A stretch of 64,000 bases of DNA from a virus: positions 1-64,000 of the IMG/VR virus record IMGVR_UViG_3300029922_000015. The stretch is one strand, 5' to 3'. Within the stretch, counting starts at the first letter, position 1. Each line of letters opens with the position of its first letter. The translations under genes and the position numbers were made by a program. The notes under the pieces were generated by a model. The model had not been told where the DNA came from, ran no database searches, and worked only from the letters and a program-made list of their open reading frames with translations. Shown piece after piece: positions 1,439 through 24,693 of this stretch.

Positions 1439-2296
1439 ATGATACAAATTAAGTGGCTACCTTGGGAAGATCGAATCTTGAAAGAAAATTTTCATCTTAC
1501 ATTTTATTCAATTCAAAAATTATTACCACATCGTTCTATTAGCTCGATTAATAATAGAGCGCTATATCTTAAGTTAAAAAAATATCAATATGGAAAATCA
1601 AAATATACTTTTAACGACAAATTTTGGTCAGAACCAAATTTAATAAACTCATATTGGGCGGGACAAATAGCAGCAGATGGATGCGTTCGTAAACAAGGAA
1701 AATGCACAATTCTTTCCATTTCCATTAATGCTATAGATAGAATTCTTTTAGATACTTTTATTAAAGATATTGAATATACCGGAAGTTATTTCCCGCATAC
1801 GAGATTAACAAAAAAGGGTAATATTTCAAAAATGCTTACCCTGAGACTAAATGGACTTAAACAGGCAGAAATAGACTTGGAGAATATATTTAATATTGTA
1901 CCTTTAAAAACAAAAATACTCAAACCCGCTAATCTATCCGACGATTTACAATTAGCTTACATTGTCGGATATACCGACGGAGATGGATGCATTTTTTGCA
2001 ACGATAAGGCGTTGATGGTAAAATATGTATCTTGTTCTTCTTCTATCATCGAATGGCTTAATATTTTTTTAAATATGAAATTTCCTATTAAAATACGAAA
2101 ACGAATAAGTAAAATAAAAAACTATAATAATCAATACTATCAAATTTGCTTCTGTGGAATTCAAGCCGCTATCATCATCGACACTCTTCGCCAACTTCCT
2201 ATCCCCAAACTAGATAGAAAATGGAATAATCCCAAAGTTTTAGATAGAATTGAAAAATACAAAAAAGAGTTTCCTAAATACTTTAACGTTGTGTAA
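1439..2296 (+). CDS. Free-standing LAGLIDADG homing endonuclease with N-terminal Myb-like HTH
   Basis: Two motifs, YWAGQIAADGCV and YIVGYTDGDGCI; N-terminal WEDRILKENF...HRSISSINNRA. Confidence 0.85.
   Translation: MIQIKWLPWEDRILKENFHLTFYSIQKLLPHRSISSINNRALYLKLKKYQYGKSKYTFNDKFWSEPNLINSYWAGQIAADGCVRKQGKCTILSISINAIDRILLDTFIKDIEYTGSYFPHTRLTKKGNISKMLTLRLNGLKQAEIDLENIFNIVPLKTKILKPANLSDDLQLAYIVGYTDGDGCIFCNDKALMVKYVSCSSSIIEWLNIFLNMKFPIKIRKRISKIKNYNNQYYQICFCGIQAAIIIDTLRQLPIPKLDRKWNNPKVLDRIEKYKKEFPKYFNVV
2291..2296 (+). promoter_or_regulatory. Putative late-promoter motif GTGTAA
   Basis: Same hexamer precedes many structural genes (also 3084, 5853 as CTGTAA, 7610, 9950, 20623, 55295). Confidence 0.55.
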
Positions 2297-7069: not shown

Positions 7070-7615
7070 ATGCCCGAGAGAATTAATTTAGAAAAACAAA
7101 AATTTGGAAAATTAACCGTATTATTTTGTACGAATTTAAAGGATAATGATAATCGTTTACTTTGGAAATGTCAATGCGATTGTGGAAACGAAACGAATAT
7201 CGCTGGAAAAAGATTAAGAGACGGACGCACAAAATCTTGTGGATGCATTAATAAAGCGCGAGGAAAAGATAGTATTGTTTGGCAGGGTTATGGTGAAATC
7301 AGCAAAACATATTTTAACCAAGCTAAATTAGGAGCTTATAAAAGAGATTTTCCTTTTGAAATTTCCATAGAAGATATGCATAATCAATTTTTAAAACAAA
7401 ATAGAAAATGCGCTTTGTCCGGGTTAGAATTAACATTTTCATCTTTAGCTCATTCGGGAGACGGAAACGCTTCTCTAGACCGCATCAATTCTCAAAAGGG
7501 TTATACAAAAGATAATATTCAATGGGTCGATAAGGATGTCAATAGGATGAAACAGCATTTCCCCGAAGATAAATTTATTAAACTTTGTAAGCTTATTGCG
7601 CAACATAACGTGTAA
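7070..7615 (+). CDS. HNH-type (His-Me finger) homing endonuclease
   Basis: KFGKLTV...WKCQCDCGN...KSCGC DNA-binding module plus CALSG...ASLDRINSQKGY..DNIQWV..DVNRMK; own TATAAT at 7059-7064. Confidence 0.8.
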   Translation: MPERINLEKQKFGKLTVLFCTNLKDNDNRLLWKCQCDCGNETNIAGKRLRDGRTKSCGCINKARGKDSIVWQGYGEISKTYFNQAKLGAYKRDFPFEISIEDMHNQFLKQNRKCALSGLELTFSSLAHSGDGNASLDRINSQKGYTKDNIQWVDKDVNRMKQHFPEDKFIKLCKLIAQHNV

Positions 7616-7972: not shown

Positions 7973-8198
7973 TTTAAGTTTAAAAGATGTAGTACAAAAT
8001 AATATTTCACTCCAATCTACAGAAAGAACATTAATAAAAGAATTTAACATCTCCCCAAACAACGTTAGCGCGGATTATTTTTTAGGAGATAATTTCAAAC
8101 AAAAATTCATAGGATTTACGGAAGAAAAGAAAACTAAGTTTTGTCGGTTATTAGGAGGTATGAGAAGCAAGGAATTACAAAAGGAATTATGTCAATAA
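7923..8198 (+). CDS. Hypothetical protein
   Basis: Fills the gap between neighbours but overlaps the upstream gene by 50 nt. Confidence 0.35.
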   Translation: MTSNSKIIDLARSRFNSLSLKDVVQNNISLQSTERTLIKEFNISPNNVSADYFLGDNFKQKFIGFTEEKKTKFCRLLGGMRSKELQKELCQ

Positions 8199-8962
8199 AA
8201 ACGCTATATACATTCGAGGTTAATAAGGAAATTGAAGTCGATAAGGAAGAAAAGGTAGATGGGGGGACTTTGGTTAAGAAAGTTAAGTCTACTAAGCCAG
8301 TTCGGTTCGCTATACGCAAGCCCAATCGATCCACAATCGATTCCTGTGAACGTTTTTATAGTGTTGAGTACAATAAGGCCATTACCGACGGATTAATGCC
8401 TAGAGCCCTTTTTGCTAAAAGACTAAATAACGACAACGGTATTTTTTCAGAAGCCCAAATGAAGGAATTGCAAGGGCTATATACTAAATTTATTGACATT
8501 GGTAATGACATTGTTTCTTTTTCGGCTAAAAAGCCAGAAGATCGAACCGATGAAGAAAAAAAGCAAAATGAAGAAGCGGTTATTCAATACGCCGATATTC
8601 AACAAAAACTCAATAACTATGAATTAGCTAAACAAAGTATTTTCGATAATACGGCAGAATCCGCTGCTATGGTAAAAGCTATTTCTTGGTATGTTCTTTT
8701 TTTAAGTTATAAAGAAAACGATAAAGGAGAGTTCGAACCTCTTTATAAAGGAGATAGCTATAACGAAAAAATCGAATTTTACGACGAACTGGAAGAACAC
8801 GAGGATTCTTTTTTACTTGGTGTGGCGCGTCGATTAAATAATCTAATTACCCAATTGTATTTGGGAAGAGTAAGAACCGAAGAGGACTTAAAAGCATTAG
8901 ACGATAGAGAGAATTCTACTTTAGGTAAGAAAGAAGAATCGGAAGAAAAGAGTGAAGGATAA
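8189..8962 (+). CDS. Putative tail assembly chaperone
   Basis: Charged helical protein between tube and tape measure; ATG 8189 with AAGGA SD preferred over 8141. Confidence 0.55.
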   Translation: MSIKTLYTFEVNKEIEVDKEEKVDGGTLVKKVKSTKPVRFAIRKPNRSTIDSCERFYSVEYNKAITDGLMPRALFAKRLNNDNGIFSEAQMKELQGLYTKFIDIGNDIVSFSAKKPEDRTDEEKKQNEEAVIQYADIQQKLNNYELAKQSIFDNTAESAAMVKAISWYVLFLSYKENDKGEFEPLYKGDSYNEKIEFYDELEEHEDSFLLGVARRLNNLITQLYLGRVRTEEDLKALDDRENSTLGKKEESEEKSEG

Positions 8963-9938
8963 AGAGCTTTCCTTTTTACGCAGAACTTATTCTGATATAA
9001 TTCAAGGATTTTCTTCTCTTATCTTCAATGGCGATAAGATTTTAATTAAACATTTCACTTCCTTAGATCAAGGATTGATTGACGCGGATTACGAATTTCA
9101 TTTTGAAGACGCTATTAAAGAGGGATTACCTAATATAGAAGAACGTTTGAATTTAATGATTCAACAAGGGCTTTGGGGCAAGAGCGACGAAGCGTGGATC
9201 GCCAATCAAAAATTCTATATCGATAATTTGGCGAAAACAAAATCGAAAATGACTTGGCAATCTCAGATCGAAGAGATTAATAAACAAATTACTGAAGCCG
9301 AAGTCGAACTAAAGAAAAAGGAAGGCGACAAGAAAGAATTATTGGGCCTTGTGGCAGAATCTTACGCCTCTAAAAAGGTCAATGAAAATTATATTTATCA
9401 TTCCTTTAGAAAAGAAAATATAAATGAGCGATTTTTTTCTCAGGAGGATTTCGATGAACTATCTATTTTCGAATTAAATATCCTAGCTGGACTTTACACC
9501 AAAACATTATCGCCTTTTAATTCTAAAAATATAAAGAAGATAGGCTTAGCTTCTTTTTTTCAATCCTCTTATTCGATTTGTGGAGATAATCCCCAAACGT
9601 TCTTCGGAAAGTCCGTGTGCGATTTAACCTTTTATCAATCGGAAATTTTCACTTATGGTCGATTTTTTAAAAGTATTCTTTCGGCTGATATCAAGCCAGA
9701 CGACGAAACCCTAGCTGATCCAGATAAACTAATTGATTGGTATATGAGTTCTAAGAATGCCCAAGACATCATTGGGCCGGTGGCAGACGATAATAATGGA
9801 GCTACACACGTCTTCGGAGCTAAGAAGTCTGATATTACGGCGGCTGGAGCCCATCTCTCTTTAAGCCCCGTACAGAGAGCTTTAAAGGACAAAAAGGGGC
9901 TTTCTATGGAAGACGTAATAAGGCATCATGGACTTTAA
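8952..9938 (+). CDS. Putative second tail assembly chaperone
   Basis: Directly before the tape measure; KPDDETLADPDKLIDWY motif. Confidence 0.5.
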   Translation: MKDKELSFLRRTYSDIIQGFSSLIFNGDKILIKHFTSLDQGLIDADYEFHFEDAIKEGLPNIEERLNLMIQQGLWGKSDEAWIANQKFYIDNLAKTKSKMTWQSQIEEINKQITEAEVELKKKEGDKKELLGLVAESYASKKVNENYIYHSFRKENINERFFSQEDFDELSIFELNILAGLYTKTLSPFNSKNIKKIGLASFFQSSYSICGDNPQTFFGKSVCDLTFYQSEIFTYGRFFKSILSADIKPDDETLADPDKLIDWYMSSKNAQDIIGPVADDNNGATHVFGAKKSDITAAGAHLSLSPVQRALKDKKGLSMEDVIRHHGL

Positions 9939-9978: not shown

Positions 9979-12900
9979 ATGCCACAATCAGCCATTACAT
10001 TTGATGTATCAGGAGATACGCGCCGATTAGAACAAGATATCGCGGCGGCGGTTCGTCGCGTACCTGAAATTACCATCCCCGTAAGAATTCAAAGTGCTCC
10101 TTTGGGTCGAATTACAGGTGAGGTTTCAGAATTCGCTAAATCGATGGAAGCGGCGAACGCTCGTTTGGCCGCATTCGGAGCGGGCGCGATTGTCATTGGC
10201 ACGGTGGCTGAATCCCTACGATCTTTGATTGACAATGCGATTAAAGTTAATAAAGCTTTTACAGACATTAATTCGGTTATTCATTTAACCCAAAGTCAAT
10301 TACAAAGCTTCGGTAATGATCTTTTTAATGTAGCTAAAAATACAGGCCAATCTTTCCAAACCGTTACTGAAGTTGCTACTAATTTCGCAAGACAGACTCA
10401 GAACGTTGGCGATATTATTCGCAGAACTAATGATGCGTTAATTCTTTATCGTTTGACCGGATTGGATGTAGGACAATCCCTACAAGCTCTCACGACGATT
10501 GTTAACACTTTCGGCTCTCAAGTCGGAAATAGCACAAATGCACTTAATAAGTTAATTGCAGTAGACCAAGGTTTTGCCGTCCGCGCATCCGATTTGGCTG
10601 AAGCCTTTATTCGAGCGGGAACTGCGGCTAAAGACGCGGGAGTAAATGTAGATCAGTTCGGCGCGTTAGTAACAGCAACACAAGCTATTACTCAGCGAGG
10701 CGGAACTGTTATCGGTAATGCTTTAAAATCTATTTTTACTAGATTAGATAGATCTACCACTCTAGACGACTTGGAAAAATTAGGCATTGCTACTAGAGAT
10801 GTCGAAGGTCATACTTTGGGGGCCATTCAAATTCTAGAAGAACTAGCGAAAAGATATGACACATTAAGCGACTCTCAAAAGTCTTATACATCTCAGTTGG
10901 TTGGCGGTGTTTATAATATCAACGTACTAAAAGCGGCTTTGGGCGATTTGAGCAATCAATATGGAATTTATAATAGAGCTTTGTCAGCTTCACAAAATCC
11001 TAATAATAACGCCGCTATTGATAGAAACGCATTTCAAAATCGTTCGTATTCTTCTTTAATTAATTCTACTCAAGCAAACTTTGTTCAAGCAACTTCACAA
11101 GTTGGCAATCTAACCGTGGCCCCGGCTATTCAAAGAGTATTGGGAGGCGCGTCCGACATTTCTAGTGCTCTTGGCAATATATCGGCTCCGACAGGTAATT
11201 TAAGCTCTTTGGGAACTCAACTCGGACAGGGAATTCTAAAGGGTATCGGGGATTACATTTCCGGCCCCGGATTAACATTGGCGGGGGCTTTAGGTATTAA
11301 ATTCTTTACTAGATTTGCTTCTTTTTCCGCCGGAGCTTTTAAAACAACTTTGAATTTCGGAGGATTCGGAGAAGACGAAAAGAAAGTTCAACAAGGCATT
11401 ATCGATCTGCTTCAACGAAATAAAGGATTATACGACGAAATTATTCAAGACGGGGCAACACGAGAACAACAAGAAAAGACAATTCTTGGGGTTATTCAAC
11501 AACAAATTCAAGCTAGAGAAGAACTACTTGCCGTAAGTCAGAGCTTGGGGACGGTTGCCTTTGGAGAGGGCGTTCGTTATAGTGATCGCGCCGGATTTAA
11601 AAACTCCGCCGGGGGATTTGTTCCTAATTTTCTAGCTTCTAAAGAACAATCTTTAGCGAATAGTCATGGCTATTCTGCCGGAAATGTAATCCCTTATCAA
11701 TTATCGGGTCAGGATTCGGGCATGTCTCCTAGACAATTTATCCAACAAGAGGGAATAAATAAAGCAGGGGGATTTGTTCCGAATGCTATTGTTAATACCG
11801 CTGAATATAAATTAACTCGCGCTGGAAGCAATGCCGTGGGAATTATCCCTCCAAACGACGCCCAAAATATTGATCCAACTAAGGCGGCTTTAAAGGGATA
11901 CAATCTAAGTAAAATCTCTGGCGATGGGTTCGTCCCTAATTTCGCAGATGGAAATGATCCTACCGCTTTGCTATCGGCATTAGGAGTATTCGGAGGATTA
12001 ACAGCCGCAACTATTTTTGGTTCGTTATTCAATAGAGGAGGAAAGGGAGGTTCTTTAGATAAGGGGTTTTCAAGTTCGGGCGAATTCTATGAAAAGCAAG
12101 TTCTAGAAGATTTGGTCGGGCCTACTGCTATTCAACGTAGAACTAAAAGAGGATTATCTCAAATGGCGCGTTCTCATGGCGTCTTGGATAAAAGCGAAAA
12201 TAATCTAACGAAAGTTCAAATTGCTAATCGTATTAATACTGGAATTCTCCAACAATATCCTAATGTTTATCACGGGCTAGTTAAAAAGGGATGGGTTGGA
12301 AACGATGATTTATCTGATAGCGTTCAGGGAAATTTTGATATCCTACAAGGATTAGGGATTCGTGGAGCGGGGTTTGTTCCTAATTTCGCTTTAAATTCTG
12401 ATCTTAAAGGCGTTGAGTTCATAGCTAAATTAAAAAATGCTTTATTAATTCGCAATCCAGAAAAGCAATCTCAGATTCTTGGCCATCTTTACAAACAATA
12501 TGGTAGACTAATTAAAAATCCCGAAGTTGCTTCGAAATTAGATAATAATGTCACAAACGCATTAGCAAAGTTCTTTCCTGAAACTAGCCAATCTCCCTTT
12601 AATGCATCTTTGGCGAACTCCCTTAAAGGAAAATCATTATCTTATTTATTACCAGACGAACCTGAGACTAGAGCTTTAGGTCGTTTCGAATCTATCTTTT
12701 CTAAAAATGTAATAAAGGCTCCTTTAACAAGATATTCTGATCCTAGCAATACCGATTCAAATCTGGATTTTACTGGTTCAGGTAGAAATTTGCCCGGATT
12801 TCGAGCTAACGACCCTTATTCTATTGGAAATAGTAAATTTTCTGAAGCTAAATTAGCAGGATTGGGTAATGTTGTTTCTGTAGGGAGACTGGCTAAAAAC

Positions 12901-15900
12901 TTCGAATCTGGATTATCTAATCAAGAGAAAACTCAAAAATTAATCTCTATCGCGGATAGACTTTTTCCCCAAGGCTGGTACGCAAAGCCAGAGGACTCTA
13001 GACCTTTCCAATATTTTGAAGGTCACGTTGCGGAAGCGGACAAAGCCGGTTTCCAGAGTCAGGGTATTTATCCTGATTATGCTATTAAAAATCATAATGG
13101 AAATTTATGGATTCCAGAAGAGGGATATTATTTTCAAAGCAAATTCGACGTAGATTCTCAGCCTACTAAACTCGCTAAGCAACAAGCAAGATATGCGGGG
13201 GATACGGAAAGAGGACGATATGATAAATATGAAGATAATTTTACTTCTCCTGAGTACCGAGTTCATATTATAGGATCGGGAGAGGACGGAGCATCTAAAG
13301 TAGTTCCTTTCGCTACATTCCGTAAAGATGAAAATCATAAGATAGGATATAATGAAATTCCTTATGTCCGCGAAACAGATGAAATTCGCAAAATTCATGC
13401 GGCGGCTTTAGCTAGAATTAATCAATTACCATCTCGCGAAAGAGACAATGTTGTTTTTGCCCCCGATGTAATTAAACTTAAGGATGGCTCATATGGAGTT
13501 ATCGAACTAAATCCTTCTGTAGATAAAACTGGAAATCCTTATGCCGTCGCCGGAACGAGTGGAGCTTTAACAAATAACAGTTTTGTTCAAGATGCTATAT
13601 CGGGTTTTGTAAGAGGAACTAAGCCTCTTTTAGCTAGAATAGGAGACAGAAATCCTAATTTTGCTAAATTATTTGGTTACGGAGCGGGATTCGTTCCTAA
13701 TTTTGCCGATCCTTTAAACGCGGCTTTCTCTCGCGAAGCCTCCTTCGGAAAAACTCCTATTCTAGGCTCCGCTCCTGAATTAGGAATTCCCGTTGGAGTT
13801 TACAACACCGAACAACAAGGAAAATACGGAAGTTTATCGAATACCATTCGCGCGGATCATTTATCTAGAGGGGAAAGTTTGGGTTCTTTGCCTTTAACTG
13901 GAAGTGGCAAGGAGAGTTATGTACCTAATTTCGCTGATAATCCACAAGGGGGTTTGTTTGATTTAGATCGAGTATTAAAAGAATTAACAGCTTCGATACA
14001 AAGCGCGAACGCAGCGATGACTGAAACAGAGCGCGTAGAACAAGCAAGATTCAATCGTGCCCGCGCTCAAGATGAAAGCGAATCTATCGGAATTCGCAAT
14101 CAGTATCCCGGTTCCGAGCCTTTGTATCAAGGGGGTTATGCTCCGTATAGCGCAAATAATCCTTATATCAATAAGAACGAACTAGATAATTCTAAAAAAA
14201 GTAGTTTTAATTATACGGGAATCGGTAGCTTAAGCGACGTTGCCCCTAAATTCCCTAGATTTTCAGAAGGTACTTCCCAAAAGTTATTTGGAGCTAGTTT
14301 CGTTGCTCCGTTACTAGGCGGGGTTGCGGGACAATTTTTAAATTCGAATGGAGGCAATCCCCAAGGAGAAAGAATTGCTCAGGGAGTCGGATCGGCGGCT
14401 GGAACGGCATTAACCTTCGCCGCTCTTGGTGGGCCTTATGGAGCGGCCATTGGTGCGGTTATTGGTGGTTTGCAAGTATTGAGCACGGCAATCGAAAACT
14501 CGACTCCCTCTTTCGAAGATTTATCTAAAAAAGCAGAAGAATATAAAGATAAGCAAGATCAACAGATTAATTCTATTCAAGGATTAATTCAAGCTCAGGC
14601 GCAATTAAAATCAGCTATTAATAGCGGAAACTCACAAGATATCGACGCCGCTAGAAAAAATTTCACCCAAGCGCGTTTAAGCCCCAATCTAAGTCCCGAT
14701 CTTTTAAAACAAATTGACGCCGCTCAAACGCCGGGGGATCAACAAAAATTGATAGCCGGTCTAACCGAAAATTCTGGAAATGCTTATAATTTACAACAGG
14801 GAATCGCGGGGCTTAGGGGGCTATTAGATAATTCTGATATTCATGGATTACAGAGTGTTTTTTCGAATGGTCAAATTTCAGCTACGGAAAAAACTCAAAT
14901 ACAATCCATCGCTCAGAGTTTAATATCTTCGGGCGAGGTTACTCCTTTTAAGAAGGGCGGCCTTATTACCAAAGACGATTTAGAGTATAATAGTAATTCG
15001 GACATAGCTAAAAATTTCGATTTTCGCTCAAGACTTTCTGACGAAGAAAAGTCTTCTATAATAAACACTTTGAATAAGGTATATCGAGATCAACAAAATG
15101 CTATTAAAACAGGAGACGCTTTTACTCCTATTGCAAGTATTGGCGATCAAAGATCAAATTTCCTTTTAGCGGCTAATCAAGGTATCGCCGCTAATCAATT
15201 CAGAATTAACAAAACCGTCGGAGTCAACACAAACGCTTTGGATTACGCTAGCCAATTGTTAGAAAATAGAAAAGATATTACTAATCAGCAAGATTATTTA
15301 CAAGCGAATCAAAATATACAATCCGGGCGACTAAAAAATGATTTAGGTCAACAGAATTCCTCGGTTTTAAGTAGTTTAGCTCAAAATATCGCTCAGCGTC
15401 TAGCGGGAAACACTCAAGACACAGGTGGCCCGTCGGATATTGCTACTCAAAAGCAAATTTTAGATATTATTAATCAATCCGGCGCGGGAAAACTATCCGG
15501 CAATGATATTATTGAAAAATTAAGTGATTCTATCAAATCCATTCAAAACGGGTCGATTCAGCAAGAACTTAAACAAGAATTACAAAAGCAACAGCTATCT
15601 TTAGCAGATATTGGACAAAAATTTGATATTGCGAATACTGCTTTAGCAAACTCTTTAAAAGTACAACAAGACGCATTAAATCTAGATAACACAAAGAAGT
15701 CTTTCGGTGGAATAGGTACTTTAGGTAATGCCCAAGCGTTAAGCGCATTGATTAATCCTATAACCCAAGGAACTCAAGTTAATATTCAGGCGGGAATTGC
15801 GGCGGGTTCATTGAATACCGCCGGACGAAGATCGCAATTCGCTCCCGGCGCATCAGGAGATTTACAATTCCAAGAATCTGAACAATCGAGATTAGGTCGG

Positions 15901-17301
15901 GTTGGAGCTTCGCGTTTTAACGCATATCAAAACTTTACGAAGATTTTTCCAGAGGCCGCTAACGATAATGATGCGCGCAATAAGCTTTTATACCCCGACG
16001 GACAAAATACGGCAGGAGGCGTTCGAGCCAATGATATCACCGGATATATTAAAGGTATTATTGGACAATTGGGAACTTTAGGAGGGAGAAACGGACAAGT
16101 CTTATCTCGCTTACAAAATCAATCGGCTTATTCTTTGCAACACGGCGGAGATATAAGTGGAACGATAGCCGAAATTCAAAAAATTTCGCAAGACCCGGCT
16201 TTTCGAGGAAACGATATTCAATCAGAATTTAAAGGAGTATTAGATACTCTAGGACAGTCTAATAAATTTATTCATCCCGATACTGTTAATGGGATTTCCG
16301 TGGGACAAGTTTATCGTACTTTAGCGCAAAACAGAACCGGCCCCGCCTCTTTGTCGATAGGAGATTCTTTGTCCCATTACGGAGCTAGCATCGATAGAAA
16401 TGCTTATAATAAGGCTTTTAGCGGAAAGAATATAATAGAAGATTATTTTCATACTCGTCGTGGAGGAAGTGATCCGTTAGATTCTTTTATTAAGAGAGAT
16501 GCTTATAATAAAGTTTTTGACCCCGAAACTCAAAAAAGAATAGATGGTTGGAGAAAGACTAGAAGTTCTCTTACAGACCCTAAATTAATACATCAAGCGG
16601 ATTTGGCAATTCAGGATATAGAAAATGGCCCTCTCACTTTATCGCAACCACTGGCGAATATAGCCAAGACGACTTCGCCAATCATACCTAATCCTCTAGG
16701 GATTAGATCGCAGGGGAATACTCAAGCTGACATTGCCGCTGGAAATGCTCCGGTATCTCAGCAAATTAAAGACATTACTAATAGTTTACAAAATATCTCA
16801 ACTCAAGATTTGAATATTAAAGCTACAACAGTTACTTTATCTGGAGATTTAAGTCAAAAATTAGTTGGGGCTTATGACTTAACGCAATTAGGACAGACGC
16901 AAACAAAGGCCGAACACGATTTAACGGTAGCTACCGCAAGGGATCAGGGCAATGCCGGGGCAATAGCTAAGGATCAGCAACAATATATCGATACTTTCAC
17001 CGCCGCTTTAACCCCAGCCCTTGTAGCCGCATTAAAAGAAGCGTCCGCTTCGGACGCGAATGGAAAACCAATTCAAGTTGATATCGGATTAAATTCCAAA
17101 GTGTCTATAACTTCTGGTTTAGCAAAAAGTATTGGAAATGCGGATAATTTACAAAAATTGCAGCAACAATTGGATAAAGTAATTCAGGAGGCTATTCATA
17201 GATATGTCAAGAATACTTCCTTAAATGTAGTACCGGATCGTTCTAATAGTGGTAGCGATACAAGTGATACAGGAACAAGTTTGAATGGAAGCGGTAGCTA
17301 A
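9979..17301 (+). CDS. Tape measure protein with inserted cargo domains, including an ATP-grasp-like domain
   Basis: TP901-type TMP core at the N-terminus (LFNVAKNTGQSFQTV...DLAEAFIRAGTAAKDAGV...IGNALKSIFTRL); six GFVPNF-like motifs; Gln/Ala-rich coiled coil C-half. Confidence 0.85.
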   Translation: MPQSAITFDVSGDTRRLEQDIAAAVRRVPEITIPVRIQSAPLGRITGEVSEFAKSMEAANARLAAFGAGAIVIGTVAESLRSLIDNAIKVNKAFTDINSVIHLTQSQLQSFGNDLFNVAKNTGQSFQTVTEVATNFARQTQNVGDIIRRTNDALILYRLTGLDVGQSLQALTTIVNTFGSQVGNSTNALNKLIAVDQGFAVRASDLAEAFIRAGTAAKDAGVNVDQFGALVTATQAITQRGGTVIGNALKSIFTRLDRSTTLDDLEKLGIATRDVEGHTLGAIQILEELAKRYDTLSDSQKSYTSQLVGGVYNINVLKAALGDLSNQYGIYNRALSASQNPNNNAAIDRNAFQNRSYSSLINSTQANFVQATSQVGNLTVAPAIQRVLGGASDISSALGNISAPTGNLSSLGTQLGQGILKGIGDYISGPGLTLAGALGIKFFTRFASFSAGAFKTTLNFGGFGEDEKKVQQGIIDLLQRNKGLYDEIIQDGATREQQEKTILGVIQQQIQAREELLAVSQSLGTVAFGEGVRYSDRAGFKNSAGGFVPNFLASKEQSLANSHGYSAGNVIPYQLSGQDSGMSPRQFIQQEGINKAGGFVPNAIVNTAEYKLTRAGSNAVGIIPPNDAQNIDPTKAALKGYNLSKISGDGFVPNFADGNDPTALLSALGVFGGLTAATIFGSLFNRGGKGGSLDKGFSSSGEFYEKQVLEDLVGPTAIQRRTKRGLSQMARSHGVLDKSENNLTKVQIANRINTGILQQYPNVYHGLVKKGWVGNDDLSDSVQGNFDILQGLGIRGAGFVPNFALNSDLKGVEFIAKLKNALLIRNPEKQSQILGHLYKQYGRLIKNPEVASKLDNNVTNALAKFFPETSQSPFNASLANSLKGKSLSYLLPDEPETRALGRFESIFSKNVIKAPLTRYSDPSNTDSNLDFTGSGRNLPGFRANDPYSIGNSKFSEAKLAGLGNVVSVGRLAKNFESGLSNQEKTQKLISIADRLFPQGWYAKPEDSRPFQYFEGHVAEADKAGFQSQGIYPDYAIKNHNGNLWIPEEGYYFQSKFDVDSQPTKLAKQQARYAGDTERGRYDKYEDNFTSPEYRVHIIGSGEDGASKVVPFATFRKDENHKIGYNEIPYVRETDEIRKIHAAALARINQLPSRERDNVVFAPDVIKLKDGSYGVIELNPSVDKTGNPYAVAGTSGALTNNSFVQDAISGFVRGTKPLLARIGDRNPNFAKLFGYGAGFVPNFADPLNAAFSREASFGKTPILGSAPELGIPVGVYNTEQQGKYGSLSNTIRADHLSRGESLGSLPLTGSGKESYVPNFADNPQGGLFDLDRVLKELTASIQSANAAMTETERVEQARFNRARAQDESESIGIRNQYPGSEPLYQGGYAPYSANNPYINKNELDNSKKSSFNYTGIGSLSDVAPKFPRFSEGTSQKLFGASFVAPLLGGVAGQFLNSNGGNPQGERIAQGVGSAAGTALTFAALGGPYGAAIGAVIGGLQVLSTAIENSTPSFEDLSKKAEEYKDKQDQQINSIQGLIQAQAQLKSAINSGNSQDIDAARKNFTQARLSPNLSPDLLKQIDAAQTPGDQQKLIAGLTENSGNAYNLQQGIAGLRGLLDNSDIHGLQSVFSNGQISATEKTQIQSIAQSLISSGEVTPFKKGGLITKDDLEYNSNSDIAKNFDFRSRLSDEEKSSIINTLNKVYRDQQNAIKTGDAFTPIASIGDQRSNFLLAANQGIAANQFRINKTVGVNTNALDYASQLLENRKDITNQQDYLQANQNIQSGRLKNDLGQQNSSVLSSLAQNIAQRLAGNTQDTGGPSDIATQKQILDIINQSGAGKLSGNDIIEKLSDSIKSIQNGSIQQELKQELQKQQLSLADIGQKFDIANTALANSLKVQQDALNLDNTKKSFGGIGTLGNAQALSALINPITQGTQVNIQAGIAAGSLNTAGRRSQFAPGASGDLQFQESEQSRLGRVGASRFNAYQNFTKIFPEAANDNDARNKLLYPDGQNTAGGVRANDITGYIKGIIGQLGTLGGRNGQVLSRLQNQSAYSLQHGGDISGTIAEIQKISQDPAFRGNDIQSEFKGVLDTLGQSNKFIHPDTVNGISVGQVYRTLAQNRTGPASLSIGDSLSHYGASIDRNAYNKAFSGKNIIEDYFHTRRGGSDPLDSFIKRDAYNKVFDPETQKRIDGWRKTRSSLTDPKLIHQADLAIQDIENGPLTLSQPLANIAKTTSPIIPNPLGIRSQGNTQADIAAGNAPVSQQIKDITNSLQNISTQDLNIKATTVTLSGDLSQKLVGAYDLTQLGQTQTKAEHDLTVATARDQGNAGAIAKDQQQYIDTFTAALTPALVAALKEASASDANGKPIQVDIGLNSKVSITSGLAKSIGNADNLQKLQQQLDKVIQEAIHRYVKNTSLNVVPDRSNSGSDTSDTGTSLNGSGS
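11614..13935 (+). repeat. Six GFVPNF(A)-like peptide motifs within the tape measure protein
   Basis: GFVPNFL 11614, GFVPNAI 11770, GFVPNFA 11926, 12370 and 13687, SYVPNFA 13915. Confidence 0.9.
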
Positions 17302-18923
17302 TGATCGATTTCTCCCTAGCGACAGTCTTAAGTTTGAATTATACTCCACAATTTTTAGGAGATAATTTAAGATATAAAGTAACTCAAAATCTATCTATAG
17401 AAGGATGGATTTTAAGTTCAACTTTTAGTGGGGTTTCTGGTATTCAAAGCGGTATAAATTATTTGTTAAGTAATCCCAAGGATTATGACGAAATCGTTTT
17501 AAATGGATACAATTTTGGACAGGGAAAAGTTCTCGATTTCCAATTTGATAAAGATGAACAAACGCGCGACGTTTTATATAAAAAATATACAGCCTCGCTA
17601 GAAGTTTATAGTTCGGGGAATCTTTTCAATGCTGTTAGTGGATACTATAGCGGCTTGACTTGGGAAAACGCCCAAATCCTAGACCGATTCGATGAATCGT
17701 TTAGCTATACTAGAAATCAAGATGGGTCTTCGCAATATAGTCAACAATTAAATCTTAGATTTAATAGCGGACAAAGCCTACCCGATACCCCTTTAAATTT
17801 GGCAAAGGCTTTCGCAAGTGGGTTTATTGCCAATACGAATATTACTGGATTTTTAGGATCAGATTATAGCAAAAATTTTCATAAATATTTTACTGAAAAT
17901 ATCAATTTAATCGACAGTACCTATTCGGTAAAATATGATGTTCAATTCCCTATCGAGTCTGGAATTTATGCCATTAACTATAATCATTCTTATTCTCTAG
18001 ATGAAAATGGCATTATCAATGTTAGCGAAAATGGAAATATCAAAGGATTGTATGATCCTCTTATGCAAGGGGTTCATTCTGGCCTAGCGATTGAGATTCC
18101 TAATTCTTGGGCTCGCTGTTCTGGTCTATTCGCTTTCTATTCTCCTAGTGGGGCTTATCCTTTAAATCCTAATCCGGTAAAGAAAAATATTAAGGTAAAC
18201 AGATTCGAAGGAACCGCCGATTTTGAAATTGCTTATACCGATGATCCTCGTTATCAAAACACTTACGTTTGGGAATATACAACAACGATAGATGTTAGTA
18301 CCCAACGAGTTTATACCGTTACCGAAAACGGGAAAGTAGATGGAATCGGACGTAGATTACTTAATAAATATCCAAACGCCTTATCAGGATTTAATATTGT
18401 TGAAAGTGGAATTTCGGCCCGAGTCTCCGGAATTTACGACTCTGTAAATCCATATCCTTTAAATCTAAACTTAACAGACTCTAAAGTAGCTTACTCTTAT
18501 TATCAAGGAGCTATTACTTATACCCAAACCTTTAGTGATAATATTACATTATTTCCGACTAGTGGAATTCGTCAATTTGAATTCAAAATTAGCGATAAGA
18601 TTCCAACCCAAGCGACAAATAAGTTCAATATTTTAGGTGTAAAGGAATTAATACAGCCTACTAATCAATCCACTTTGGGTCAAAGAAATATTGATATCAA
18701 AATGATTGGTAATCGAGGATTACCAGTAAGTAATTATTTAACCTACGCTTCGGGACAGTTGACGGGATTTAAGGATATAGGAACAGATATTTGGACAGCT
18801 AACGCTAACTATAGTTACGATCCAGTAAATAATCAATTTGGACTCAACGTGGTTTATAACTACGATGGATTGTATAAGAATTTTACCGACATTATTTTTA
18901 GTAATAGCGGTGTTATGGAATAA
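17301..18923 (+). CDS. Distal tail/baseplate structural protein
   Basis: TAATG coupling to TMP; beta-rich with internal repeats. Confidence 0.55.
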   Translation: MIDFSLATVLSLNYTPQFLGDNLRYKVTQNLSIEGWILSSTFSGVSGIQSGINYLLSNPKDYDEIVLNGYNFGQGKVLDFQFDKDEQTRDVLYKKYTASLEVYSSGNLFNAVSGYYSGLTWENAQILDRFDESFSYTRNQDGSSQYSQQLNLRFNSGQSLPDTPLNLAKAFASGFIANTNITGFLGSDYSKNFHKYFTENINLIDSTYSVKYDVQFPIESGIYAINYNHSYSLDENGIINVSENGNIKGLYDPLMQGVHSGLAIEIPNSWARCSGLFAFYSPSGAYPLNPNPVKKNIKVNRFEGTADFEIAYTDDPRYQNTYVWEYTTTIDVSTQRVYTVTENGKVDGIGRRLLNKYPNALSGFNIVESGISARVSGIYDSVNPYPLNLNLTDSKVAYSYYQGAITYTQTFSDNITLFPTSGIRQFEFKISDKIPTQATNKFNILGVKELIQPTNQSTLGQRNIDIKMIGNRGLPVSNYLTYASGQLTGFKDIGTDIWTANANYSYDPVNNQFGLNVVYNYDGLYKNFTDIIFSNSGVME

Positions 18924-18925
18924 GT

Positions 18926-20623
18926 ATGGTACAGATTTTTTATAATAACCAAGATGCTTTCTCTGGAATTTGTCCGACGCCTATCATTGGGCAGCGGAAT
19001 AATTTCATCAAATATGGCGAACAATGGGGCGAACTAACTAAAATTAGTTTATATGGAAATATTGTCGGTGGGTGTGTCAGCGGAATAATTAATTATTTAA
19101 TTACCGATGAAAACTCTATTAGGATTACAGAATCAGGAGACTATCGAGTAGATGAATTCTCCTATTCCGGCTTAGACGCTAGTTCGTTTCAAGTATTGGT
19201 ATCTGGTCAGCAAGCTTTGATACAAAATTTTTCTCAAGATTTTCAATCTTTTCAAATCGTACAAGACGGTCAGGTTTTGGTAAATAAACCTTACGCCTTA
19301 ATCAAATCAATTTCCTTTCCTCAAGGAAAATATTCCTATTTAATTCCTTTTCAAATTGATATTGATTGTTATGAGTCGGGATTCTTTTCTGGAACTTATG
19401 GAATCTTAGAACCTAAAAACGAGTATTCATTTACTCAAAATAAAGACCAATCTATTGCGATTAGACACACGATATCTTGTCGAGGATTTAATACCGATTC
19501 TAGAAATTCGAACGCTCTACAAAACGCCAAGAACTACATCGCTAGTCTTTCTGGATATCAAGGAGTGATGCCCGCTTTCGTTAACGTTGGATTGTCTGGA
19601 TTTACGCCTTCATTAATCAGCCAAATAGAAAATATAAATAGAGTTGAGGGAACTTATTCCGTAGATGAAACCTATATAGCCGATCCATTCTTTACGTCTG
19701 GTGTTCTTAGATACGCAACGACTTATGATTCAGGGATAGCAGACGGCTTATCTTCTGTTCGAGTGGCGGGAAGTATAAAAACTTCTAAAAATTATCCTTA
19801 TAATTTTATTAGAAATCGATATCTGACCTTCGATGCTTTTAGTGCCGCCGTTTGGGCTTATAGTGGCGCTACGAATGGGATGATAGACTTAAATCCCTTC
19901 TACTTGTCCTCCGGCGTTACAGAAGATAATTTTGGCGGAGCGATAAATTTTGATATCTCCTTCAATAATGATCAAACCCCTAATCCATTTCTGGATTACT
20001 CAGTATCATTCGACCATGATATCATTACCGATATTACTTCTGCCACTTTTCAGGGAACAATTAAAGGACGGGGCGATCTTTATAACAGATATCAAAGAGT
20101 ATTGGCTTTTTCCACCGGAATCAATACTTATAATTTAACTTTAGGAGAATATTACAATAACGGATATCAATACATCCTGAATCCTTTGTTTATAACCTCT
20201 TCTAATTCAAAAGACCCTTATCGTGGCGAGATTTCTATCGGAGCTACATTTAACGATAAAATGCTTCCGGTAAGCGGATTCGCCAGCTTCGATTATAGTT
20301 TTAAAGTAACGCCCTCTTTGACAAAATATTCGGCAGTTCCTATCTTGAATGGCTCTGGCAACTATTGGATTACGAACTTGGGATATGCCAATCGAACTGT
20401 TGTAACTATGGCGGGAACTGCGGTAATATTACCCAATTTAAGTCAACAATCTGGTGTAACTTTATTAACAAATTTTGTTAATATACAAATTCAACCATTT
20501 ATAAATGGTAAGAATCGTCCCTGCTTAGAAAGCCAAGAAATTGTTTGGGGAAACGATGATATCGGAAAGGATTTATCGTTTGAGGTTATTTATAGTTACG
20601 AGGATAATCCATTAATAATTTAG
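18926..20623 (+). CDS. Distal tail/baseplate structural protein (probable paralog of the upstream gene)
   Basis: Same repeat pattern (NRVEGTYSVDETY vs NRFEGTADFEIAY; GTIKGRG vs GKVDGIG). Confidence 0.55.
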   Translation: MVQIFYNNQDAFSGICPTPIIGQRNNFIKYGEQWGELTKISLYGNIVGGCVSGIINYLITDENSIRITESGDYRVDEFSYSGLDASSFQVLVSGQQALIQNFSQDFQSFQIVQDGQVLVNKPYALIKSISFPQGKYSYLIPFQIDIDCYESGFFSGTYGILEPKNEYSFTQNKDQSIAIRHTISCRGFNTDSRNSNALQNAKNYIASLSGYQGVMPAFVNVGLSGFTPSLISQIENINRVEGTYSVDETYIADPFFTSGVLRYATTYDSGIADGLSSVRVAGSIKTSKNYPYNFIRNRYLTFDAFSAAVWAYSGATNGMIDLNPFYLSSGVTEDNFGGAINFDISFNNDQTPNPFLDYSVSFDHDIITDITSATFQGTIKGRGDLYNRYQRVLAFSTGINTYNLTLGEYYNNGYQYILNPLFITSSNSKDPYRGEISIGATFNDKMLPVSGFASFDYSFKVTPSLTKYSAVPILNGSGNYWITNLGYANRTVVTMAGTAVILPNLSQQSGVTLLTNFVNIQIQPFINGKNRPCLESQEIVWGNDDIGKDLSFEVIYSYEDNPLII

Positions 20624-20628
20624 TGTAA
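20623..20628 (+). promoter_or_regulatory. Putative late-promoter motif GTGTAA
   Basis: Intergenic, upstream of the LamG-domain gene. Confidence 0.5.
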
Positions 20629-20654
20629 AATAAAGGGTAGGAAAAAGGCAAAAG

Positions 20655-22340
20655 GTGAAGAATTTCGATTACTTTTATACTGGTGAACTAAGTTTGCCAG
20701 TAAATCAATACCAGATTTACTATGATTTCAATGAAATCGGGGCTAATCCAATTATTCCACAAGGCTCTTCAAATCCGCGATATTCTGGCATTATTTCCTC
20801 ATTAGGATCATTTTATTCCGTTTCTGGTTCTGGTCTATTCTCTTCCAGTCAAAATATTTCTATACAAAATGCCAGTGGGCTCAACGCAACAAGTTTCACC
20901 GCTTTCTTTGTATATGAGAAAAACTATACGGGAAACGCCGTTCTATTTTCTTCGTTAACCAGTGGGGGGAGCGTTCCTTCTGGATTTATTATTGGAATTA
21001 ATGATGCAAATAGACTTTATTTTGAATGCTACGATCAAAATGGACAAAATATCTATACATCTTCTAATATTTATGGGGGAAAGAATGCGGTAGCGGTGGT
21101 TAAACAGAATAATATTCTGAACTTCATGTATTATAACTTTAATACGCAATCTATAGAACCAGAAAATTTCTTTATTAGTTCAACAGCCCTTTATCAAAAT
21201 AATCAAGCTTACTTGGGCTCGCCAGTAAACGCTCCCACTTATGTTACTGAGAAAAGTTTTAGTGGCTATATGGATCAGTTCGTCTATATAAATACCGCAC
21301 TAACAAGCAATACGATTTCAACACTTTTTAGTGGATTTTTTGCTAGTGGGCTACCCGATACCGTTGTCGTGGTAGATCAAACTAACGATTTTATCACGGG
21401 CGCGTCGATTCAATTAGCGGAAATTGGTACGGGAGTTACCGGCTTTGGAGTATATCTTTCTGGATATGTTTTCGATAACGATAGTCGCCCATTGCCAGTA
21501 TTTCTTTATAACAATCTCACAGGAGCAATTATCGAAGATACTTTCGTTCCTTTAACATCATCTTTATCTTTTCAAGTTTCCGGCTTAATAAATAACGGGT
21601 ATTATGTCGATACTGGATATTGTAATTCCTTTGGTATGGATGGGGTTAATTTAATGCGTCCAATTGATTCATCCGATTATAATCTTGAATTGTATGCCTA
21701 TCAAACTATTAATTTAGATAATCTTGGATTAACTACTTCTTTTAATAATAATGGTTGGTTTGCAATGGATGCAATTTTTCCGGTTATAAATTTATATATC
21801 AATGGTATCGCTTATAACTCAGGAATGTATTATTTGAGTGGCAATAGTTTTATTAATATTACTTATTTAAGTGGTAATTATTATTTAACAGGAAATAGTA
21901 TTGTAATCGATAGTGCCATCAAGGCTACAGATACCGTTACTTTCGATGTCATCAGCGGAACTCCTAAAACTTTTATTCTTACTTCGAGCACAGGACAGTC
22001 TTTCGCAACAACGCAAACATCTAATATAATTTTTCTAAACGGACAAAAATTAGTATCCGGTACGGATTATACCTATGGAGGAGGAAATTTAAATATTAAT
22101 GCAACTCTAGCCACCGGATCAATTATTTCTTTTCCAATGATAACTAATTTTGAATATACTAGCGGTAGATTCTTATCTCGTTTTGGTCGGGATACTTCTA
22201 TGTTCTGGTTAAATGGGCAAAGACAAGTTTTGAATAAGGATTATGTAGAAATTTCTAATATTGATTTACTCCAAGGTTCGGGAATATTTCAAATATATAA
22301 TAGCTCATTACAGATAAACCAATTCACTACACAATGGTAA
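20655..22340 (+). CDS. Virion protein with LamG/concanavalin-like domain
   Basis: IYYDFNE...SFTAFFVYEK...GFIIGINDANRLYFE...FSGYMDQFVYINTAL; LNGQKL..GTDY repeats. Confidence 0.65.
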   Translation: MKNFDYFYTGELSLPVNQYQIYYDFNEIGANPIIPQGSSNPRYSGIISSLGSFYSVSGSGLFSSSQNISIQNASGLNATSFTAFFVYEKNYTGNAVLFSSLTSGGSVPSGFIIGINDANRLYFECYDQNGQNIYTSSNIYGGKNAVAVVKQNNILNFMYYNFNTQSIEPENFFISSTALYQNNQAYLGSPVNAPTYVTEKSFSGYMDQFVYINTALTSNTISTLFSGFFASGLPDTVVVVDQTNDFITGASIQLAEIGTGVTGFGVYLSGYVFDNDSRPLPVFLYNNLTGAIIEDTFVPLTSSLSFQVSGLINNGYYVDTGYCNSFGMDGVNLMRPIDSSDYNLELYAYQTINLDNLGLTTSFNNNGWFAMDAIFPVINLYINGIAYNSGMYYLSGNSFINITYLSGNYYLTGNSIVIDSAIKATDTVTFDVISGTPKTFILTSSTGQSFATTQTSNIIFLNGQKLVSGTDYTYGGGNLNINATLATGSIISFPMITNFEYTSGRFLSRFGRDTSMFWLNGQRQVLNKDYVEISNIDLLQGSGIFQIYNSSLQINQFTTQW

Positions 22341-22341
22341 A

Positions 22342-24693
22342 ATGATACAAACTCTAGATCAAGTTACGATTAATGGTTCACAGCAAATATGGAATGGATA
22401 TATTTATGCTTTGAACTATCAGCCCTCTTTTGGACAAACTCCATCTTATCTTACAATGAATTTTGTTTCTGAAGATGGAACTTTTTCTATTAATCAAGAT
22501 GATTTAGAAGTTTTGAGTCCTTATACGATATCAATAGGAGACAATATTCAATTGTCCATGTATCCCGTCGATTATAAAAGAACCGAGGATAAATCAGGAA
22601 AACTTTTAGAAGTGAAGTTTATTGATACTTCCATTGCATTAGATAAAGTGATTGTTGTATTAAATGGGCGTCAAGGTAGCGATGGAAATGAATATCCGAT
22701 TGATCCTTATGGCCCCGGCCCTATTTACGCTAATGATGCCGTGGCCGGATCGTGCTATATTCCCGTAGGAAGACAACTTCTTACAATAGCGGATACATAT
22801 AATACCGTATTACCTGTGGTTTATAGCTTTCCTGAATTGTGTGATGCTATTGGCGTAAATGGTATTACTATCGATCCCGATAGCTTCACCCTTATACAAA
22901 ATTCGAATCAATTCTTTTTTGCGAGCTATATTGGGACGCTGCGGGGGGTTCTTCAACAATGGTGCACCGATTTGGGATATGGTTTTTATTGGGAAAATAA
23001 CGCAATTCATTTCTTAGATTTAACAACTAATCTAGTTTTAAATACCTCTTCTTTCGATACCGCTACTAAGGACGCTTATACTGAAGAGGTCACTATAGAA
23101 GATACGGTAGGAAGAGTCGCGTGCGCTTTTTATGGTCAAGACCGTCAATGGATTAGTATAAATCCCGCTCAAGATACGCAAATTTCCTTTAAACAAGTTA
23201 GTCTTGTTCAAGTCGGTTATAGCGCAGATGACATATCAGCTATTAAAGCCGCCTTTTTAGGAGAGGACTTTTTTTATGCTTATAATTTTTTTATAAGTTT
23301 CTCTAATGAGGCCGGTTCTTTAACTTTGGGAATGCCCCAATGTACGGCGGCGGATACCAGCACCCAAAGTAAAAGTTTAGATTTAGCTGCGCCAAATAAT
23401 ATTTTTAATCAATATTATTATTCAGCGATGAATAAAATGACAGCTCAACAAAATTTTAAAACCTATAGGGAACTTGTTGATGAGGTCGGAAGATATTTCT
23501 ATATTCCTATGACTAGAGGAGATTGGCGTAATTTAAACAATTCGGTAGAAAAAGTAAAAAGTCAAAGCTGGTATCCTAAAGATGTGGTAGTTTCTTCCAC
23601 AATGCTAGCGAAATTGGCTTCTCCTCAATCTAAAAGTAATGAAAGTTTACAAGCTTTCTTATTAGGAACTCCTTATGTACCTCCCTCTAGCAATAATACC
23701 GGGGCGGGAAATCCAGCCGAGGGGGCTTCGTCAAATCAGGGCTACGATCCAACAACATACATTTCCCCTAAGTCTGATAACGATGATGGATTTTTAATTG
23801 TAGATTTGGGATTAACTTCTTGGCAAATTGTAGAAGTCGAGGGAACGGTAACTCAAGACGGGGTTTATATCAACGTTACTCCCGAAGATGTAGGAAATTA
23901 TTTACAAGCTAATGATATATTTTATAATCTCCCGTTAGCTTGCAATAGCAGAAGTGATCCGAGTTCTGTGTTAGAGCAATTAACAAGCTTAAATGGGCAA
24001 TCTGAAGTTTTATCTGCAATACAGGGGGATTATGTCTTGCAAATGTGGGGCGTAAAATCTTCTACCCCTGTTAATTCTCTAACCCTATCTCTTAACATTC
24101 TAAAGACGCCAGAGGACTTGCTAGGGCCAAATCAATTATTATCCTGTGTTCTTACTGAGCCGGGAGTAATTTGCGTTCCTAAAGTGGAAGAATTTTTACG
24201 TTCCGAAACTGATAAAACCGGAGACACTGTTAATTGTCATAGCAATGTAATCAAAAATGAAATGAATTTCCAAAGAATTACTAATCAGGATTTATTGGCA
24301 TTAGGAACTTTAGATTTAGGTTTCTTAGGACAAGTTAGAACAACTACAGGTATTAATATTGTAATGCCGGCCGTTCCTAACTATAAAACATTGCAAGAGG
24401 CTTTCCAATTATTTTGTCAAAATCTAACATTTAGTAAAGTTCAACCTACTATTATTAGAACTTATCATTTACCTTATATCGATCTACCTGACAATTATCA
24501 ACCTTTAATTGGTAATGGATTAATGTCTCTAAAAATTTCTATTAATAGCAATGGTGTTTCTAGCGAATATACAATGGGCACTCGTTTCATGTCAATTCCA
24601 AGTATAGAATCGATTCGTATGAATATAGAGTTCCAGCGGGGAACAAACCAAAGTCGTTTTTTGCCTTATGGATGGACACCTTTTGGATACTAA
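22342..24693 (+). CDS. Tail hub/baseplate protein
   Basis: YIGTLRGVLQQWCTDLGYGFYW hub-like motif; synteny. Confidence 0.5.
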   Translation: MIQTLDQVTINGSQQIWNGYIYALNYQPSFGQTPSYLTMNFVSEDGTFSINQDDLEVLSPYTISIGDNIQLSMYPVDYKRTEDKSGKLLEVKFIDTSIALDKVIVVLNGRQGSDGNEYPIDPYGPGPIYANDAVAGSCYIPVGRQLLTIADTYNTVLPVVYSFPELCDAIGVNGITIDPDSFTLIQNSNQFFFASYIGTLRGVLQQWCTDLGYGFYWENNAIHFLDLTTNLVLNTSSFDTATKDAYTEEVTIEDTVGRVACAFYGQDRQWISINPAQDTQISFKQVSLVQVGYSADDISAIKAAFLGEDFFYAYNFFISFSNEAGSLTLGMPQCTAADTSTQSKSLDLAAPNNIFNQYYYSAMNKMTAQQNFKTYRELVDEVGRYFYIPMTRGDWRNLNNSVEKVKSQSWYPKDVVVSSTMLAKLASPQSKSNESLQAFLLGTPYVPPSSNNTGAGNPAEGASSNQGYDPTTYISPKSDNDDGFLIVDLGLTSWQIVEVEGTVTQDGVYINVTPEDVGNYLQANDIFYNLPLACNSRSDPSSVLEQLTSLNGQSEVLSAIQGDYVLQMWGVKSSTPVNSLTLSLNILKTPEDLLGPNQLLSCVLTEPGVICVPKVEEFLRSETDKTGDTVNCHSNVIKNEMNFQRITNQDLLALGTLDLGFLGQVRTTTGINIVMPAVPNYKTLQEAFQLFCQNLTFSKVQPTIIRTYHLPYIDLPDNYQPLIGNGLMSLKISINSNGVSSEYTMGTRFMSIPSIESIRMNIEFQRGTNQSRFLPYGWTPFGY

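Follow-up and report, generated by a model that had tools for sequence, protein, structure and literature searches.

A divergent, predicted ATP-grasp cargo domain in the variable middle of a giant phage tape measure protein

We analysed the first 64 kb (hereafter, the window) of a 149,934-bp IMG/VR virus record, IMGVR_UViG_3300029922_000015, the completeness of which is estimated at 75%. The window contains the gene for a tape measure protein (TMP), P0001, which occupies positions 9979..17301 of the plus strand as a single uninterrupted frame of 2440 codons and encompasses a divergent, predicted ATP-grasp domain. The features of the sequence identify this open reading frame (ORF) as the TMP: the PF10145 core, the giant size and the position in the tail module all fit. 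In a Pfam scan, PF10145 (PhageMin_Tail) matches amino acids (aa) 119-304 with 84.1 bits against a cut-off of 33.2 (E 1.6e-23); nine PHROG TMP families match the 2440-aa ORF, the best with E 4e-40; and the N-terminus is connected by tblastn to annotated TMPs of Bacillus, Lactococcus and Gordonia phages, with ~25% identity.

The middle of the protein is punctuated by six G-[FY]-V-P-N-[FA] motifs, which were found by motif search across 11608..13934 (plus strand) and are located at aa 547, 599, 651, 799, 1238 and 1314. The corresponding 26-nucleotide (nt) copies begin at nt 11608, 11764, 11920, 12364, 13681 and 13909, and the differences between them are mainly synonymous. The stretch between the fourth and fifth motifs (aa 799 and 1238), that is, nt 12391-13686 or aa 805-1236, is the block of interest. 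Its first part (aa 805-957; 12391..12849, plus strand) shows no match in Pfam, PHROG, the PDB, the homologues or the TMP relatives; a degenerate pre-ATP-grasp domain could reside there. The second part (aa 958-1236, with the domain proper at ~958-1232; 12850..13686, plus strand) is recognized through an AlphaFold2 model, structural matches and homologues, and we are highly confident that it represents an ATP-grasp domain of a family carried as cargo by polyvalent phage proteins. A preliminary description of this DNA had treated the entire block of ~430 aa as ligase-like; this reading is borne out for aa ~958-1232 and does not extend to aa 805-957, which have no detectable relative.

AlphaFold2, applied to aa 958-1236 with a 41-sequence alignment (aa 805-957 lie outside the modelled part), yielded a model with a predicted local distance difference test score (pLDDT) of 73.6 and a predicted template modelling score (pTM) of 0.71. 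As modelled, this region contains an ATP-grasp fold that consists of a RAGNYA domain and a protein-kinase/PIPK-like domain. All the listed Foldseek matches in the PDB, with probabilities up to 0.98, are ATP-grasp proteins, namely, D-Ala-D-Ala ligases, biotin carboxylases, LysX, PurK and BacD. The preliminary description had allowed that structure prediction might give no ATP-grasp fold; for aa 958-1236, structure prediction and Foldseek matched only ATP-grasp enzymes among the listed hits. The template modelling scores of the PDB matches are only ~0.27, which is expected because the ATP-grasp fold is hinge-jointed. When the model was compared by VIA-align with 48,161 PDB representative chains, ATP-grasp proteins accounted for 50 of the 50 listed rows; the best of these is 3df7 (Z 8.7, root-mean-square deviation 3.2 Å over 110 residues), and RimK and Cdc123 score Z 5.9 and 5.6, respectively. 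In the BFVD viral library, the top match (probability 0.99) is an ATP-grasp protein of 262 aa from Agrobacterium phage Atu_ph07, most likely AUZ95380.1, as identified through the protein length. AUZ95380.1 scores 54.7 bits on PF14243 and has been cited as an R2K ATP-grasp ligase (PMC7824862).

An exhaustive phmmer search over 1.84 billion cluster representatives, with relatives counted as clusters at 50% identity, gave 124 hits other than the TMP itself, in proteins of 159-3137 aa, with ~40% identity and E values down to 7e-18. All these hits are limited to aa ~1089-1220 of the TMP. Nearly all the homologues carry, in addition, W-[IV]-[IV]-K-x-Y and F-M-A-Q-P motifs upstream of the matched module, at fixed distances, and these align onto G-W-Y-A-K-P and Y-Y-F-Q-S of the TMP. 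Outside the domain, none of the 124 is related to the TMP, nor are there any TMPs among them; a MuF head-packaging domain is present in at least 15. Among the relatives that were scanned for other domains (5 long and 41 mostly shorter proteins), we detected C39 peptidase, NUDIX, 2H/Acb1-like, GNAT and arginine-deiminase-like domains. A locus search for the domain in IMG/VR retrieved six loci with an alignment query and none with a single-protein query. At the related loci, the domain lies within a MuF protein, beside a MuF gene, beside a portal and a MuF-NUDIX gene, or at the end of a tail-fibre-like module. A profile built from the family alignment retrieved only noise from the PDB sequences, tblastn with the block as the query found no counterpart in 50,697 phage genomes, and word-indexed searches for homologues were likewise fruitless.

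The MuF-linked relatives of the domain are "polyvalent proteins" as described by Iyer et al. (PMC5512222). In a word search of that survey, ATP-grasp appears only in an RNA-ligase context, and "tape measure" nowhere. The definition of polyvalent proteins involves several conflict-related enzymatic domains and a MuF or portal anchor; the TMP has one recognizable enzymatic domain, and its anchor is the TMP itself. Some of the MuF polyvalent proteins (P0002 and P0003) combine two ATP-grasp copies with a C39-type peptidase, an arrangement that hints at proteolytic release of the cargo in that family.

The MuF/portal-associated family (P0002, P0003, P0007 and P0039) resembles the TMP domain in sequence (~40% identity across aa 1089-1220), in the order of the K, Q, ExRxH, D, ExN and SG motifs, in the fold, and in that the carrier is a virion protein expected to enter the host. 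The model of P0039, a representative of this family, has a pLDDT of 88.9 and adopts a full ATP-grasp enzyme fold: it aligns over 230-250 residues with whole ATP-grasp enzymes, including their N-domains (50 of the 50 listed rows are ATP-grasp proteins, with Z up to 9.6), and Foldseek returned 74 matches at E <= 1e-3, each listed one being an ATP-grasp enzyme. A pre-ATP-grasp domain is present in this model, where residues ~58-135 align with the N-domains of solved enzymes. The differences from the TMP are in the carrier, which is a MuF protein of the head in one case and a tape measure of the tail in the other, and in the domain itself. Neither the glycine loop nor the ~90-aa insert that follows the lysine strand is present in the TMP copy, whose insert before ExR is longer; a pre-ATP-grasp domain is not demonstrable in the TMP, for which the model starts at aa 958.

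In the TMP, the domain contains, in this order, GWYAKP (aa 999, nt 12973), YYFQSKF (aa 1050), EYRVHIIG (aa 1092), VFAPDVI (aa 1159), DGSYGVIELNP (aa 1169) and GTSG (aa 1192), as listed in the preliminary description. This signature is beyond chance: the C-terminal half (aa ~1089-1220) matches the 124 clusters, and K, Q, ExR, D and ExN fall in invariant or near-invariant columns of the family. The hallmark motifs of the ATP-grasp superfamily, to which these sequences had been assigned, follow one another as expected and sit on the appropriate secondary-structure elements of the model. The strand-2 lysine with a basic residue at +5, K1003-P-E-D-S-R1008 (12985..13002, plus strand, as for the other motifs), ends model strand 43-47, and K is present in 96% of the 102 family segments. 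Q1053 of YYFQSKF (13135..13137) belongs to the hinge-type strand (model strand 93-97) and is Q in 94% of the family. The first strand of the kinase-like half (model strand 135-137) bears E1092-Y-R1094-V-H1096 (13252..13266), with E and H invariant and R conserved in 99%. The metal and phosphate ligand motifs, D1163 and E1176-L-N1178 (13465..13512), lie on model strands 206-209 and 215-219 and are invariant in the 102 segments. S1194 of G-T-S-G (13558..13560) is family-invariant as well and corresponds to the S-G after ExN in R2K.2 proteins. Thus, in the 102-segment alignment, the TMP keeps all the invariant residues of the family (E1092, H1096, G1104, P1151, D1163, G1170, E1176, N1178 and S1194) and nearly all those conserved at >=90%, including W1000, K1003, Q1053, R1071, G1074 and R1094. 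In hhalign comparisons, D1163 and E1176-x-N1178 align with the D and ExN motifs of RimK, DdlB and R2K proteins. The TMP motif residues fall on the strands specified for the conserved ATP-grasp positions, including the strand-2 lysine (PMC4431377); according to the same source, an arginine at the ExR position marks the amide-ligase clade, to which most peptide and amide ligases belong.

Within the ATP-grasp superfamily, the R2K clade is defined by the absence of the glycine loop and by a second basic residue in the loop after the strand-2 lysine (PMC4431377). The K-P-E-D-S-R sequence of the TMP (R1008 at +5 from K1003, no glycine loop) resembles [KR]-P-x-x-D-K in 12 R2K.2 (PF14243-type) sequences; the nearest relatives of the TMP domain possess the glycine loop and lack the basic residue at +5. 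The R2K.2 proteins (PF14243 or DUF4343; 'R2K.2' of Burroughs et al. 2015), such as AUZ95380.1 and Myrna gp254, are small phage-borne modules predicted to modify host proteins. They share with the TMP a K/R in strand 2 with a basic residue roughly five positions further on, the lack of the glycine loop, ExR, D, ExN and S-G, and differ in that they are free-standing, whereas the domain described here is embedded in the TMP. PF14243 is the sole ATP-grasp Pfam family touched by any relative, at sub-threshold level only (17-21 bits against a cut-off of 26.3 where scores are listed; 5 of 41 relatives at E<=0.05), and it hits neither the TMP protein nor the genome. The hhalign comparison with R2K.2 gives a probability of 58.5% over the C-terminal half; for the reversed single TMP domain, a control that is not like-for-like with the family profile, the value is 0.2%. 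The comparison with DdlB gives ~1%, and that with Myrna gp254 alone is not significant. We file the domain under the ATP-grasp superfamily, with R2K as the nearest clade, membership in which is weakly suggested by the sequence.

RimK, which had been named as an example of the ATP-grasp amide ligases, is a relative at the superfamily level only. Membership in the RimK family is not supported, given the absence of a Pfam RimK hit, an hhalign probability of 0.9% with E. coli RimK, and a structural Z of 5.9 that is below other ATP-grasp rows. Together with D-Ala-D-Ala ligase, LysX and tubulin-tyrosine-ligase-like enzymes, RimK shares with the TMP domain the fold, the logic of the catalytic motifs and the ligase-clade arginine (Z 5-9). 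None of these enzymes has a significant sequence relationship with the TMP, which, unlike them, has no glycine loop and no demonstrable N-domain.

A scan of IMG/VR with the back-translated motif revealed at least 119 stretches, and 80 loci were parsed (L013-L092). At 72 of the 80 loci, the motif is found in giant ORFs, which reach 3616 aa and contain 2-9 copies each, with the first copy mostly near aa 550-650. The 242 instances in 73 proteins (72 large ORFs and the TMP) conform to the consensus [AS]-x-G-[FY]-[VI]-P-N-F-A, with G at -1 in 99%; we found no literature on this GFVPNFA motif, which may serve as a cleavage site or as a contact with the tube or a chaperone. About 60 of the giant ORFs match the N-terminal ~650 aa of the TMP, with 28-39% identity and E down to 1e-122, and some match it again from aa ~1217-1237 onward. 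The last two motifs are typically separated by 62-90 aa in the relatives and by 76 aa in the TMP. None of the 72 giant ORFs matches aa ~700-1225 of the TMP, and a hidden Markov model of the ATP-grasp family detected no clear domain in these ORFs, the best match being a marginal one in L024 (E 7e-4 over 70 positions). At the sequence level, the TMPs that share the motif appear to form a clade with a conserved N-terminal region of ~650 aa, a variable middle, and, beyond aa ~1230, another conserved part; this clade is larger than the sample parsed here. Against this background, the ATP-grasp domain looks like a lineage-specific cargo cassette in the variable, motif-delimited middle, absent from every sampled relative, in agreement with its initial characterization as cargo.

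Inter-motif blocks of the relatives match SNase (34.9 and 21.8 bits against a cut-off of 21) and a cytidylyltransferase-related region (HIGH_NTase1_ass; 32.7 bits against a cut-off of 26.7), and there is one weak GNAT match; most of the other inter-motif blocks have no Pfam match at all. These cargo-type matches are located in L075 (aa ~473-566), L086 (aa ~615-712), L039 (aa ~1359-1399) and L051 (aa ~1051-1098).

The composition of the block in the TMP gene is only mildly deviant. The GC content at third codon positions (GC3) is 0.21-0.24 in the block vs 0.27-0.31 in the rest of the gene, and the correlation of codon usage with the rest of the gene is 0.80 vs 0.83-0.92 for other chunks; these values give no clear sign of a foreign or chimeric origin. 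An internal duplication in the block, to which a short DNA repeat and an alternative placement by MAFFT had pointed, received no support from BLASTP. Between aa 729 and 1347, the frame contains no ATG, and none of the in-frame start codons scanned within aa 780-1004 is preceded by a Shine-Dalgarno sequence; therefore, the domain is made only as part of the TMP. The 2440-aa protein contains five methionines altogether (aa 1, 56, 582, 729 and 1347).

The TMP also contains hydrophobic segments outside the block. One glycine-rich segment is located at the start of the variable region (aa 661-684; 11959..12030, plus strand; Kyte-Doolittle values up to 1.73 in a 19-residue window), and two glycine-zipper-like segments follow the last motif (aa 1436-1454 and 1477-1506; 14284..14496, plus strand; Kyte-Doolittle 1.52-1.57), where PHROG 22557 gives a weak match at aa 1443-1522. 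Glycine-zipper-like hydrophobic segments thus stand on both sides of the variable cargo region.

Around the TMP gene, the scanned flanking ORFs at 8141-9938 and 17301-25760 have no Pfam match, and those at 8141-9938 and 17301-22340 have no PHROG match; by sequence comparison, the tail module of this phage is very distant from those of described phages. Upstream of the TMP gene, the ORFs at 7070-7615 and 1439-2296 (both on the plus strand) match HNH/endonuclease VII-type and endonuclease PHROGs and are likely to encode homing endonucleases. We searched for a MuF carrier, and no MuF gene is detectable in the whole record.

On balance, we think it probable that the modular TMP of this phage carries an ATP-grasp cargo cassette that is expelled and, whether as an ATP-dependent ligase or at least as an ATP-binding module, acts on a target in the host. 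The catalytic competence of the domain we rate at slightly better than an even chance, and its action in the newly infected cell at slightly worse. During infection, the domain would leave the tail together with the TMP, refold after expulsion, and get to the ATP-containing cytoplasm, possibly with the help of the flanking hydrophobic segments and of cleavage at the motifs. There, it would function as an ATP-dependent ligase of the carboxylate-amine type (peptide or amide), or at least as an ATP-binding module, and would modify or bind a host or defence target ahead of phage gene expression. In this scheme, we infer the ligase activity, the release, the cytoplasmic location and the target of the domain. 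A much broader proposal, about which we are rather doubtful, is that the punctuated giant TMPs comprise a second, tail-borne class of polyvalent carriers. The blocks would be exchangeable cargo, the motifs sites of processing or release, and the glycine-zippers the means of membrane passage, and the domain would be an R2K-like, protein-modifying ligase or a Cdc123-like, ATP-dependent binder, with a protein of host translation or defence as its target within seconds of the start of infection.

Several points weigh against an expelled, active ATP-grasp cargo. The block has no match in Pfam, PHROG, NCBIfam or PDB-sequence searches. The glycine-rich ssxGbGl loop is missing in the TMP, which has K-P-E-D-S-R-P-F-Q-Y-F-E-G vs K-x-Y-G-D-x-A-x-A-G-x-G-I in the relatives, and the AlphaFold2 model includes low-confidence inserts at residues 51-76 and 103-131; because the A-x-A-G-x-G-I loop is absent and these inserts are present, ATP binding might be altered or lost. 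No second TMP with this domain was found among ~15 billion proteins, so that the domain is a singleton, which limits comparative tests. The ejection into the cytoplasm, the cleavage at the motifs and the substrate of the domain are likewise parts of the scheme that we infer. A folded domain of 30 kDa is unable to stay folded within the lumen of the tail tube, and Cdc123, the founding member of R2K, is, to our knowledge, characterised as an ATP-dependent assembly factor and not as a proven ligase. The known enzymes borne by TMPs work on the cell wall, outside the cytoplasm.

Some of these same observations would be explained if the domain were an ATP-grasp-derived binder or chaperone with lost or changed catalysis that bound a host protein, with or without dependence on ATP, in the style of Cdc123 and eIF2-gamma, or a plug or spacer of the tail. 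Such a role, which we consider unlikely, is compatible with the absence of the relatives' glycine-rich ATP loop from the TMP copy, with the extra low-confidence inserts, and with the R2K-like resemblance; Cdc123 has been described as an eIF2 assembly factor. However, the TMP copy has retained all the family-invariant residues, the metal-ligand D and ExN as well as the ligase-clade arginine among them, and this retention, which would be unexpected once catalysis was lost, disfavours a non-catalytic binder. Furthermore, the R2K proteins also lack the glycine loop and are still predicted to be enzymes (PMC4431377).

Even as an active enzyme, the domain might work in the producing cell, prior to or during tail assembly, on the TMP, chaperones or virion proteins, by adding residues or forming graspetide-like cross-links. 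ATP is available in that cell, the domain would be folded there prior to packing into the tube, and it is made only within the TMP. We nevertheless find this quite improbable: the relatives are MuF- or portal-linked cargo beside NUDIX, 2H, peptidase and GNAT domains that are sensible only after injection, ~60 related TMPs assemble without the domain, and nuclease-type cargo occupies the same place in other TMPs of the clade. Finally, the singleton status of the domain and the slightly lower GC3 and codon-usage correlation of the block are what one could expect of a chimeric assembly artefact or of a recent selfish insertion without a role in the TMP. This explanation is scarcely credible considering that the frame is unbroken over 2440 codons, the motifs on either side differ at synonymous positions and are preserved as protein, homology to the TMP relatives resumes directly past the block, and there are two contigs on record with this protein. 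In addition, the whole-protein Pfam scan detected no intein or endonuclease family, although no direct search for such motifs was made.

Enzymes embedded in TMPs have precedents: the TMP of mycobacteriophage TM4 contains an Rpf-like motif, and Pb2 of phage T5 contains a peptidase domain, both being cell-wall enzymes. TMPs leave the tail first and carry wall-degrading domains. The TMP analysed here is similar to those of TM4 and T5, and to Sle1, in that a protein of the tape-measure type, expelled from a tail, contains an enzyme or effector module or is fused to one, and in that the functional domains vary among relatives. The TM4 and T5 enzymes differ from the ATP-grasp domain in their peptidoglycan targets, which are outside the cytoplasm, and in having no need for ATP, and do not belong to the ATP-grasp superfamily. 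Sle1, an example of the TMP-related modular effectors of contractile injection systems (PMC13277306, 2026), differs from the phage TMP in coming from such a system and is not an ATP-grasp protein either. As judged by title and abstract, we found no report in the searched library of an ATP-grasp domain embedded in a TMP, and with 0 of the 124 homologue clusters being a TMP, the domain is indeed as unusual for a TMP as first suspected. Both the carrier concept and the fold are already known; the combination of the TMP with ATP-grasp, and the apparently undescribed ATP-grasp family, are new. Because the family of the 124 clusters has no Pfam or NCBIfam model, and P0039, the one representative searched, has no tblastn hit in the 50,697 deposited phage genomes, it is an undescribed candidate family of host-modifying or counter-defence enzymes.

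An ATP-dependent, ligase-type domain in a tape measure would be sensible only if this part of the TMP enters the cytoplasm or acts before assembly. K1003, E1176 and N1178 would provide a mutable handle on the fate of TMP segments in infection if the domain is active, and the motif-punctuated giant TMPs, a clade of no fewer than 72 members with differing cargo, are a natural comparative series. By analogy, the homology of the domain to the cargo of head-packaged, injected proteins suggests that the TMP, too, delivers an enzyme into the host. If the domain is active, the concept of injected polyvalent effectors would extend from the head proteins, MuF and portal, to the tape measure of the tail.

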